Assembly (NCBI GenBank): GCA_903851135.1
Contig: CAINNK010000037.1
Span: forward strand, 1,320 to 65,319
Direction of reading: 5' to 3'
Length of the DNA: 64,000 nt
Source: an uncultured bacterium
GTDB taxonomy: Bacteria > Patescibacteriota > Minisyncoccia > Moranbacterales > GWC2-37-73
The notes below the pieces were generated by a model, which was not told where the DNA came from, did not search any database, and saw only the letters and a list, made by a program, of their open reading frames with translations. This document shows positions 58,587 to 60,143 of this stretch, in pieces. Each line of letters begins with the position of its first letter. The first letter of the stretch is position 1. The position numbers and the translations under genes were made by a program.

Positions 58587-59258
58587 TTAAAGAGTTTCAT
58601 ACACCAATTCCTCATTCCCGCTGAAACTCTTGATCACGTCAATCACTTTTCCGAAAACCTGAAAATCTTTTTTCATAATGATCGGACGATATTGCGGGTC
58701 GCGAGACATTGGTTGCAAAACCACGGCGTTGGGAGAAAAATTGATTTGTTTTATCAGCGCCATGCCATCAACCACTGCCACCACTTTGTCTTTGTTGACA
58801 ACCTCAAGGGTTTTTTCCGTGATCACCAAATCCCCCGTTCCAATCCCGGCATCAGACATTGAATCACCAACCGCCCTGAAAACAAAAACCTGCTCAGGAT
58901 TTTTGCCGTGAATAAAATCTCGATCGAGGGTGACAAATTCAGCAAAAGATTGCTCGGCAAAAACTTGCATGTTATCACAACCAGCACTGCTGAGCACTGG
59001 CAAAATCACGGTTTGAGTCATCACATCATTATGAGTTGCCAAACGAATGCCGCGATTTTGGTGACGAGAGCGAATGATGAGATTTTTCTTTTCCAGACTT
59101 TCCAAGTATTGCGTCACAGTTCGCAATGACGAAACTCCCATAAACTTTGCCAGCTCCAAAATCGTGGGAGAAGACCCATCTTTTTCAAGGCAATCACAAA
59201 TATATTCAAAAATCTTTTTTTGTTTTTGAGTAAGTTTTTTTGTTTTTTCTTTTAGCAT
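58587..59258 (-). CDS. lexA: LexA repressor
   Basis: wHTH LTQKQKKIFEYI...SPTILELA...LESLEKKNLI...RGI; Ala-Gly in SSAGC; catalytic GDSM and ALIK. Probable ATG at 59258. Confidence 0.88.
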   Translation of the reverse strand: MLKEKTKKLTQKQKKIFEYICDCLEKDGSSPTILELAKFMGVSSLRTVTQYLESLEKKNLIIRSRHQNRGIRLATHNDVMTQTVILPVLSSAGCDNMQVFAEQSFAEFVTLDRDFIHGKNPEQVFVFRAVGDSMSDAGIGTGDLVITEKTLEVVNKDKVVAVVDGMALIKQINFSPNAVVLQPMSRDPQYRPIIMKKDFQVFGKVIDVIKSFSGNEELVYETL

Positions 59259-59264
59259 TCTGAC

Positions 59265-59320
59265 ATTATACAACTTTTGGATTTGTGTAACAATAGTACA
59301 CTTGTGCACACAATATACAC
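59265..59320 (-). promoter_or_regulatory. lexA promoter with two candidate LexA operators
   Basis: TTGTTA-N17-TATAAT on the minus strand; GTGTA-N7-TACAC (59285-59301) and GTGCA-N7-TACAC (59304-59320). Confidence 0.65.
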
Positions 59321-59564
59321 AACTGTGCAGAACCCTGTGCATAATCTTAAAATGGCTTTTCTTAGCCAGATAAGCTGCTTATATTTCGCGCTTCCGTGCA
59401 ACACAAATGTGCAGCATCTTTACGTTGTGCATAACTTTCAATACACAACACACACAAATTTAAATTTGATTTGCAACTAGTTTATGATTTAAAAACATTT
59501 TAAAGGCTTCTATTGATATTTTTATCAATATCTGTTAATCTAAATCTTGTAAATAAGTGTACAC

Positions 59565-59646
59565 GGAGAAGTGACTGAGAGGGTTGAATGTAAGCGGGCA
59601 AACATTCAACGGGTTTCAAAAGAAACCCTGGCGGCCCGAAGTCCAC
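59565..59646 (+). ncRNA. tRNA-5'-end-duplicating structured element A (before tRNA-Ser GCT)
   Basis: Exact 18-nt copy of tRNA nt 1-18, then a 9-bp hairpin, a GGGTTTC-AAAA-GAAACCC hairpin and a closing CCCGAAGTC. RNA status is inferred from structure only. Confidence 0.5.
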
Positions 59647-59677
59647 AGTTTTTTGAATTTACGAAGTAAATAGATAT

Positions 59678-59767
59678 GGAGAAGTGACTGAGAGGCCGAA
59701 AGTACCTCACTGCTAACGAGGCAGGGCTTAATCGCCCTCGAGGGTTCGAATCCCTCCTTCTCCTCCA
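59678..59767 (+). tRNA. tRNA-Ser (GCT)
   Basis: GGAGAAG/CTTCTCC-T-CCA; anticodon loop CT-GCT-AA; long variable arm AGGGC-TTAATC-GCCCT; T-loop TTCGAAT. Confidence 0.92.
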
Positions 59768-59828
59768 AAAAACAAGGTCTCTATCTCAAGACCATTTGGT
59801 TTTTTGTGTTTTTAAAAAAAATAATTAA

Positions 59829-59908
59829 GAAAGCATGGCCGAGTGGGTATGGTGCGAATGTGTGAGCATTATGCGGATTTCAAAAGAAACCCAGGAACCC
59901 GAGGTCAT
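59829..59908 (+). ncRNA. tRNA-5'-end-duplicating structured element B (before tRNA-Ser TGA)
   Basis: 17/18-nt copy of tRNA nt 1-18, the same two hairpins as element A, and a closing CCCGAGGTCAT. Confidence 0.5.
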
Positions 59909-59940
59909 TCAAATTTTTGCATTTTTGAAAAAAATATTAA

Positions 59941-60025
59941 GGAAGCATGGCCGAGTGGTTGAAGGCAACAGTCTTGAAAACTGTCATGGGGAGACCCATC
60001 GTGAGTTCGAATCTCACTGCTTCCT
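59941..60025 (+). tRNA. tRNA-Ser (TGA)
   Basis: GGAAGCA/TGCTTCC-T; ACAGT-CTTGAAA-ACTGT; variable arm ATGGG-GAGA-CCCAT; GTGAG-TTCGAAT-CTCAC. Confidence 0.95.
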
Positions 60026-60044
60026 CATTAACATAAAAGCAAAA

Positions 60045-60143
60045 GAGATTCAAAGGGCGCAAGTAGAATGCAAGAAGTACAAGCATTCTGCGTGTAGGGC
60101 CCAAACTGCGAGTCAGAGCAAGTAGGAATCTCACCACTTCCTC
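60045..60143 (+). repeat. tRNA-3'-end-duplicating structured element C (after tRNA-Ser TGA)
   Basis: Terminal stem GAGATTC...GAATCTC; ends GAATCTCACCACTTCCTC versus tRNA GAATCTCACTGCTTCCTC; inner GTAGAATGC/GCATTCTGC hairpin. Confidence 0.55.

Follow-up and report, generated by a model that had tools for sequence, protein, structure and literature searches.

Short elements with tRNA-tailored arms upstream of two serine tRNA genes in a Patescibacteria genome: probable movement as folded single-stranded DNA

Background

In the 64-kb window studied here (the whole stretch of DNA that was analysed), the genes for tRNA-Ser(GCT) and tRNA-Ser(TGA) lie in tandem, and upstream of each gene its own first 18 nt are repeated. 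The distance from this repeated piece, which we call the stub, to the tRNA is 113 nt in the first case (A) and 112 nt in the second (B). What occupies the interval between stub and gene, and how did it come to be there? An earlier note on this DNA proposed that two hairpins take the place of the D-loop and that a strand tailored to each tRNA closes this D-arm on the stub. In the present study, we examined the two loci and their homologs, the partner of the tailored strand, the boundaries of the inserted unit, and its possible mode of movement.

Results and discussion

Anatomy of the two elements

The element sequences quoted for A and B were verified in the window, and all their quoted parts were found in place; A and B thus have one architecture, as had been claimed, and a T-rich tract is present after the closing strand in both. 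From stub to tRNA, the order is hairpin 1, hairpin 2, an NGG linker, the closing strand (hereafter the arm), the T-tract, and a third small hairpin. The features described in this section are on the + strand.

Stub A (59565..59582) corresponds to nt 1-18 of tRNA-Ser(GCT) with 0 mismatches, and its 3' end is the GG of the D-loop. It is followed by hairpin 1 (59583..59610; 9 bp, 10-nt loop), hairpin 2 (59611..59628; 7 bp, AAAA loop), the conserved NGG linker, here TGG (59629..59631), and the tailored arm (59632..59643), which pairs with nt 9-21 of tRNA-Ser(GCT) (59686-59698). This pairing includes tandem G.A and one bulge, and the first 3 nt of the arm, CGG, lie opposite a CCG of the tRNA that is not in stub A. 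The T-tract and hairpin 3 extend over 59645..59671, with the C(GAA)G triloop hairpin at 59657-59671, and the intact tRNA-Ser(GCT) gene occupies 59678..59767. Element A would run from the start of hairpin 1 to tRNA nt 21 (59583..59698), a length of 116 nt with 3 nt replaced and a net repeat of 113, and nt 1-21 of the intact gene would thus be carried by the element.

Stub B (59829..59846) is identical to nt 1-18 of tRNA-Ser(TGA) at 17/18 positions. Behind it are hairpin 1 (59847..59874; 9 bp including three G.T pairs), hairpin 2 with one A.C mismatch (59875-59892) and its AGG linker (together 59875..59895), and the arm (59896..59908), which pairs with nt 7-20 of tRNA-Ser(TGA) and whose first 2 nt, AA, face a TT of the tRNA that is not in stub B. 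The T-tract and hairpin 3 (59910..59935, with the T(GAA)A triloop hairpin at 59921-59935) precede the intact gene (59941..60026). The putative element B (59847..59961) is 115 nt long, gives a net repeat of 112, and ends at tRNA nt 21, so that here, too, nt 1-21 of the gene would be element-borne.

When up to 2 mismatches are allowed, the 18-nt hairpin 2 is found nowhere else in the 1.28-Mb genome than in A and B. Contigs of run X5, from the same study as the possible source run, and of run X4, from another study, span both elements without a differing letter; in run X6, each element was covered, in separate contig pieces. An Rfam search gave no match for the elements at the gathering score or at a meaningful E-value, and at E ≤10 it returned tRNAs and chance matches only. 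Likeness to a riboswitch, a hammerhead ribozyme or a CRISPR repeat was dropped for lack of an Rfam match, and a k-turn was dropped on the same ground and because the bulge is on the wrong side of the G.A pairs.

Upstream of stub A, a promoter-like TTGATA-17 nt-TAATCT is seen at 59513-59541, where the consensus scan made no call. As relatives that lack the element have a similar promoter-like site directly before tRNA-Ser(GCT), stub A holds the original position of the gene and is probably its displaced original 5' end. A LexA-like repressor gene, judged by eye from its translation, lies at 58587-59460 on the - strand, divergent from the tRNAs, and several short TGCACA/TGTGCA-type repeats are found between it and the tRNAs. 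Just upstream of stub B, a decayed T-tract and a hairpin-3-like stretch (59795-59828) suggest an earlier round of insertion at this place.

Distribution and copies

The earlier note called for a search of related genomes, and this search revealed homologs before many types of tRNA. A pattern based on hairpin 2 matched in 9/301 genomes of the class, and 5/10 of its matches outside this genome were the same element before tRNA-Ser or tRNA-Leu. In a collection of named genomes, a tRNA was found within 250 nt downstream in 16/80 loci (13 further loci were left out); most of these are labelled Moranbacteria or Parcubacteria, so that the lineage is probably Patescibacteria. Two loci labelled Bdellovibrionales (L054 and L078) carry typical copies before tRNA-Ser. 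In viral contigs, the hairpin-2 pattern gave 5 matches, none with a tRNA within 250 nt, two longer patterns gave 0, and a hairpin-3 pattern gave 1, which by eye was not an element.

We built a covariance model (R1) from 24 copies. It matched in at least 34/151 genomes of the order, including at least 16/20 of the family, in at least 18/151 genomes of the class and in at least 4/151 of the phylum, all being lower bounds, as 28 candidates at most were scored in each genome, and all including this genome and the training copies. We examined 87 matches and left out nine that were weak or had no locus. Among 79 distinct matches at E <1e-4, a tRNA lay within 160 nt downstream in 71, and these tRNAs were of 15 types; other sites, judged by eye, were the apparent tail of groEL and the inside of another repeat.

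Within the family, the pattern search found the element at 6/26 tRNA-Ser(GCT) loci and 11/27 tRNA-Ser(TGA) loci, and one more Ser(TGA) copy has a variant hairpin 2. Tandem, near-identical copies recur. This genome has 3 copies in all, the third of which, on contig C12, was found by the covariance model. As copies in the family resemble the copies at the same tRNA in other genomes and not those in the same genome, A and B are not the result of a recent spread within this genome.

Nearly all copies that restore their tRNA are sense to it and lie in its leader. At one locus (L257), a full restoring copy is on the strand opposite to tRNA-Arg(TCG); its arm is tailored to that strand, and its stub corresponds to the 3' end of the tRNA in reverse complement. 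A further six copies are on the strand opposite to a tRNA nearby. In one genome (G598), the 18 model matches include 17 dispersed copies of the core only (hairpin 1, a long-looped hairpin 2, and NGG), each of them after GG. They are found on both strands relative to rough ORF calls, with a leaning to sense (8/18 between two sense genes).

The partner of the tailored arm

We found that the complement of the arm is in the intact tRNA downstream, and that it extends 2-3 nt beyond the D-loop GG, into bases that are absent from the stub. In shuffling tests, all of which are inflated by kinship among the sequences, the start of the arm was Watson-Crick paired with the 3 nt after the junction GG at 66/78 positions, compared with 41.9±3.0 after shuffling (0/100000 shuffles); this test used 26 distinct arm/triplet pairs from 51 restoring copies and a register-free rule. 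With one representative per triplet, the value was 27/30 (15.3±2.2 when shuffled), and ten different triplets were matched. A second set was drawn from a scan of metagenomes with a pattern that contained neither stub, junction nor arm (65 matches, 50 distinct), and its 16 distinct pairs, none of them in the first match list, gave 36/48 (25.8±2.4; 0/50000 shuffles). A register-based test at the junction gave 37/60 (21.6±3.1); here the register was often one base off, and A and B scored low. Thus, the claim that the closing strand is tailored to each tRNA stood insofar as the arm tracks the tRNA type, but its partner is the downstream tRNA and not the stub. Homologs do keep the pairing of the closing strand. 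The tandem GA/GA mismatch noticed in both elements is also general: GA opposite GA is kept in 40/46 targets that have a GA, and it is found in Leu copies and in copies that do not restore the tRNA as well.

A D-arm closed on the stub is not supported as the fold of the elements, since the arm also pairs with nt found only downstream. In the 51 restoring copies, the junction is at tRNA nt 18 in 43, at nt 10 in 7 and at nt 6 in 1; as no D-stem is involved at the latter two, it is not required. The full antisense copy also speaks against this fold. In the non-restoring copies, including that on C12, the arm pairs better downstream than with the upstream flank in 17/17, at +43 to +58 in 15 of them; the 17 were picked by eye and the best of many downstream windows was compared with a single upstream one, which makes the constant spacing the more telling observation.

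Pairing of the arm with the stub is nevertheless a real alternative, as most of the partner sequence is also present there. Folded as RNA, precursor A prefers the tRNA and precursor B the stub (8.65 expected pairs for the arm, compared with 0.03), and the two folds are close in energy. With a DNA model in linear context, pairing of the arm with the tRNA is not favoured. On the stub side, the pairing is only modestly specific: because the 5' ends of serine tRNAs are alike, 19% of other targets reach as good a score.

These two folds could be used by the host. In such a case, the tRNA promoter would transcribe stub and element as an RNA leader, which may have arrived as mobile DNA before it was kept; the arm would pair with the stub to give a terminator-like stem before the U-tract, with the tRNA free, or with the D-arm, with the tRNA misfolded, and the supply of tRNA would be tuned in this way. 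The sense orientation of almost all restoring copies between promoter and tRNA, the covariation kept across a class, the inheritance by locus and not by genome, and the near-equal energies of the folds, with A choosing the tRNA and B the stub, all fit such a leader. Nevertheless, the element is absent from 20/26 and 16/27 orthologous loci, a full antisense copy exists, non-restoring and non-tRNA copies keep the same stem, and a terminator scan called neither T-tract on the + strand. We therefore regard a host-kept leader as unlikely.

Covariation and selection on the fold

When A and B were each folded alone, the fold drawn in the earlier note was obtained, with z values of -1.4 and -1.3 relative to shuffles, which are not significant. 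The homologs were more informative. Across 25 copies from the sequence search, pairing was kept in 97.5% of the cells of hairpins 1 and 2, and for 11/16 base pairs both partners had changed, whereas controls with slid partners paired in 33-46%. In 74 distinct copies aligned by the model, an alignment that is itself fitted to the structure, both sides had changed at 9/9 pairs of hairpin 1 and 6/7 pairs of hairpin 2. The wobble pairs of hairpin 1 (G.T 52, A.C 1) indicate that one strand folds, a count that rests on matches of an RNA model favouring G.U. The T-tract and hairpin 3 pattern was found inside full elements only (10/10 genome matches), and of the 79 matches, 18 have a GNA triloop in hairpin 3 and 35 have a hairpin 3 stem interrupted by G.A.

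Compared with the orthologues from the same genus (L014), hairpin 1 of A and B (59583-59610, 59847-59874) has many differences, with its pairing kept, while the arm, T-tract and hairpin 3 are almost identical. From these sequences, hairpin 1 may have been swapped or may be under diversifying pressure.

Compensatory changes in the homologs support the proposal of selection on a fold, and they also support the view that the elements are not a neutral duplication, as does GA opposite GA where a plain inverted copy would give TC. In a neutral relic, the core would have inserted into a duplicated tRNA, and the closing strand would be what is left of a D-stem or acceptor strand, or an inverted copy made only once. 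Arm A does resemble, in its 3' part, the D-stem strand of the tRNA itself, insertions of the core alone into duplicated tRNAs exist and possibly gave rise to the restoring type, and 18-nt direct repeats can explain tandem gain and loss. However, the 2-3 extra complementary bases belong to neither strand of the tRNA, GA faces GA and not TC in the 40/46 targets, the T-tract and hairpin 3 are confined to full elements, and both partners have changed in each of the 9 pairs of hairpin 1. The covariation largely refutes such a relic, and we consider it very improbable. The element family is real and under selection, and is apparently undescribed.

Junction, right end and replacement of three nucleotides

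In the metagenome scan, in which the junction was not part of the pattern, the left junction was directly after GG in 46/48 copies with a clear start of hairpin 1. In these copies, only this GG is fixed in the left flank.

The right end can be read from copies that did not restore their target. Fourteen copies are inside decayed tRNA genes, 8 of them with the matching intact tRNA alongside. In 8/8 comparable loci, which span five tRNA types (Ser-GGA four times, Glu, Ala, Thr and Ser-GCT), the sequence of the old tRNA continues immediately beyond the terminal stem, with exactly the 3 bases after GG missing, and the last 3 bases of the element differ from the lost target bases. Of the six remaining copies in decayed tRNAs, one was mis-called by the script. 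The arm is thus the 5' strand of a terminal stem, in which it pairs with the last 11-14 nt of the element, flush with the element end, and insertion replaces 3 bases. The unit consists of hairpin, hairpin, NGG and terminal stem, inserted after GG, with the T-tract and hairpin 3 in the loop of the terminal stem. An IS608-like guide function, in which the arm would read 3 flanking bases, was considered and dropped: in the non-restoring copies these bases usually differ from the target's own and therefore belong to the element. In restoring copies, the 3' end that the arm must match is also a working tRNA, and the arm is therefore tailored.

Partial duplication of a tRNA is a known footprint of integrative elements (in the accessible text of PMC9897764), and stubs are identical to their tRNA in 39/51 restoring copies. 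Stub and tRNA start could then be attL and attR of a lost integrase island, with the hairpins as arm sites. However, a single PF00589 gene was found in the genome, on a different contig. Non-restoring copies have no direct repeat and have lost 3 bases, and the junctions, whether at nt 6, 10 or 18 of a tRNA or outside tRNAs, have GG alone in common. Such a scar is therefore hardly credible.

An RNA-level mobile unit, or miniature intron, would interrupt the tRNA in its D-loop and splice or reverse-splice, alone or with a protein. In the minimum-energy RNA fold of precursor A, stub nt 1-7 pair with the acceptor strand of the tRNA, so that the element is a closed insert in the D-loop and its two junctions come close to each other; moreover, tandem G.A and wobble G.U pairs are common features of RNA. 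Yet the interrupted tRNA copies are decayed or truncated and mostly stand beside an intact tRNA, which is unexpected if splicing worked, and the 3 target bases are replaced by other bases. Rfam gave no ribozyme or intron match, we found no RVT_1 reverse transcriptase match in this genome, and antisense copies exist. We consider an intron quite improbable.

A model of mobile single-stranded DNA

Patchy presence, tandem copies, the core copies of G598 and the antisense copies point to mobile single-stranded DNA rather than to a tRNA-like RNA, although the sense bias of the restoring copies and of those in G598 fits RNA too. A and B are likely non-coding elements of about 115 nt that move as folded single-stranded DNA, insert after GG, replace 3 nt and rebuild the tRNA. 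The mobility as single-stranded DNA, the circle, the enzyme and the targeting role of the arm that follow are parts of this proposed model.

The element would insert directly after GG, with the next 3 target bases replaced. As A and B end in tRNA nt 1-21, the gene would be rebuilt behind the element and the old 5' end left upstream as the stub. The terminal stem would mark the right end of the element, and once excised as a circle the element would form a closed three-way junction in which NGG alone is unpaired. In silico, with RNA as well as DNA parameters, circular A folds into the two hairpins and the terminal stem and leaves three bases unpaired, and circular B forms the closed junction with RNA parameters only, losing hairpin 1 with DNA parameters. 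A nicking and joining enzyme acting in trans, either an HUH Y1 transposase or a small GIY-YIG nuclease, would cut and paste the element, and the arm, which is also complementary to the empty tRNA gene, could steer re-insertion to the same tRNA. Neither a circle joint nor an empty site was seen in contigs of 4 runs, and contigs drop rare forms. GNA triloops alone are reported to form a very stable DNA mini-hairpin, with the RNA tetraloop version being much weaker, and the flanking G-C pairs, which most copies here do not have, are described as essential for the DNA form (accessible text of PMC13037366).

A bolder reading, which we find possible but doubtful, is a natural reprogrammable insertion system of Patescibacteria. 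In this case, a three-way junction of 115 nt of DNA would use its 12-nt arm both to close its own end and to read the target; a change of arm and terminal segment would direct it to any GG site, its insertion would be self-repairing, and it would be moved by an unrecognised small nuclease or HUH enzyme or by its own catalysis.

Candidate enzymes

Profile searches of this genome matched two genes for Y1 HUH proteins (on contigs C37 and C45), one tyrosine recombinase and, above the cut-off, eight small GIY-YIG genes. Three of the GIY-YIG genes (on C12, C15 and C23) are at tRNA 5' ends, between a palindrome-bearing stub and the intact tRNA; GIY-YIG mini-genes with this order, ending in an intact tRNA-Cys or tRNA-Glu, are seen at C15:14400-14800 and C23:12950-13450. 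A search with NCBIfam gave only weak, sub-threshold GIY-YIG matches for the three tRNA-linked proteins. A genome of the same genus has one GIY-YIG cassette between its two tRNA-Ser genes. The layout of these cassettes is parallel to that of the element and is not proof of a partnership. In a small search of 56 loci (29 GIY-YIG, 27 Y1), the core was at the gene ends in none, and 3 core-only matches were found elsewhere, in 2 of the loci. GIY-YIG relatives occur in 96/151 genomes, including families without the element.

The copy on C12 is about 120 nt upstream of a GIY-YIG gene, with a second stub in between. This copy (C12:63020-63680, L143) is a non-restoring one in a decayed tRNA-Ser(GGA); the second stub carries a palindrome in the anticodon loop, and an intact tRNA follows the GIY-YIG gene.

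Comparison with known systems

The following comparisons draw on the accessible portions of the cited papers. Like IS200/IS605 elements such as IS608 (PMC5934647), the element would act as one folded strand with hairpins at its ends and insert 3' to a short fixed motif, its ends would be defined by DNA-DNA pairing, and a circular intermediate, here predicted, would occur. Unlike these, it has no transposase gene, its motif appears to be GG and not a tetranucleotide, its pairing is 11-14 bp long and not 4 as in IS608, it replaces 3 target bases (8/8 comparable loci) instead of inserting precisely, and it carries the 5' part of its target and rebuilds the gene.

REP/REPIN sequences with TnpA-REP (RAYT; PMC8266576) are likewise short, non-coding imperfect palindromes, proposed to be non-autonomous, with an HUH enzyme that acts in trans on their single-stranded DNA. 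Their GTAG or CGTC tag is beside hairpin 1 in 0/79 copies, however, and the present element is a multi-hairpin junction that is tailored to tRNA targets and appears to be of low copy number (3 copies in this genome, 18 matches in G598).

As for Ssn nucleases with their NTS/SRM hairpins (PMC11893778), this genome has small single-domain GIY-YIG genes with hairpin repeats. Unlike that system, the SRM motif is in 0/79 copies and not in A or B, and the element does not flank GIY-YIG genes; the accessible text of the Ssn paper has 0 occurrences of tRNA. Integrative elements that target tRNAs (PMC9897764, PMC4383910) similarly leave a displaced tRNA fragment with the regenerated gene on the opposite side. 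Unlike such islands, the element has only 115 nt and no integrase, duplicates the 5' part, varies in its junction position, has an internal arm matched to the duplicated end, and has related copies that insert without restoring.

The three GIY-YIG cassettes of this genome share with the element the layout of stub, cargo and intact tRNA. MITEs have terminal inverted repeats and a target-site duplication; unlike them, the element has ends that are not inverted repeats of each other, and its target loses 3 nt. The element works most like the single-stranded DNA elements of the IS200/IS605 and REP types, with the footprint of a tRNA island, and departs from each of them in defining features. We found no description of the element, the terminal stem or the 3-nt replacement in the literature covered, which took in neither supplements nor most subscription papers. 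Two papers by K. P. Williams reportedly deal with integration sites in tRNA and tmRNA genes, and tRNA-complementary arms are possibly described there.

Other oddities at tRNA genes

Behind tRNA-Ser(TGA), the window contains a mirror-type element (60045-60143), which consists of an inverted copy of the T-arm, a structured core in the style of hairpin 1, and a direct copy of the tRNA 3' end. A strict filter, which missed the one at 60045-60143, yielded 22 mirror elements (6 more in this genome), and in 18 of them the inverted arm extends at least 3 bases past position 57. At three loci (L161, L182 and L195 in G324, G304 and G485, respectively), an intact tRNA-Ser is flanked by inverted repeats of about 12 nt that extend the acceptor stem and is located inside older tRNA-Ser remains, which looks like the insertion of an entire tRNA in hairpin form. 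This genome also has incomplete copies of tRNA 5' parts, broken up by other short palindromes, upstream of tRNA-Ala(TGC), Gln(TTG), Lys(CTT) and Leu(CAG) on contigs C8, C27, C23 and C37, respectively.

Conclusion

If mobile, these elements would be some of the smallest that can enter an essential gene harmlessly, and their rule would be readable from the sequence: cut after GG, replace 3 bases, and close the right end by a matched stem. Long base-paired targeting has been engineered into IS608 (accessible text of PMC5934647), and something similar may have evolved here many times, once per tRNA type. With the ends of the element defined, it becomes testable which hairpin repeat is cut by which of the many small proteins of the GIY-YIG and Y1 types in Patescibacteria. 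The element also accounts for a type of tRNA fragment that is common in these genomes.
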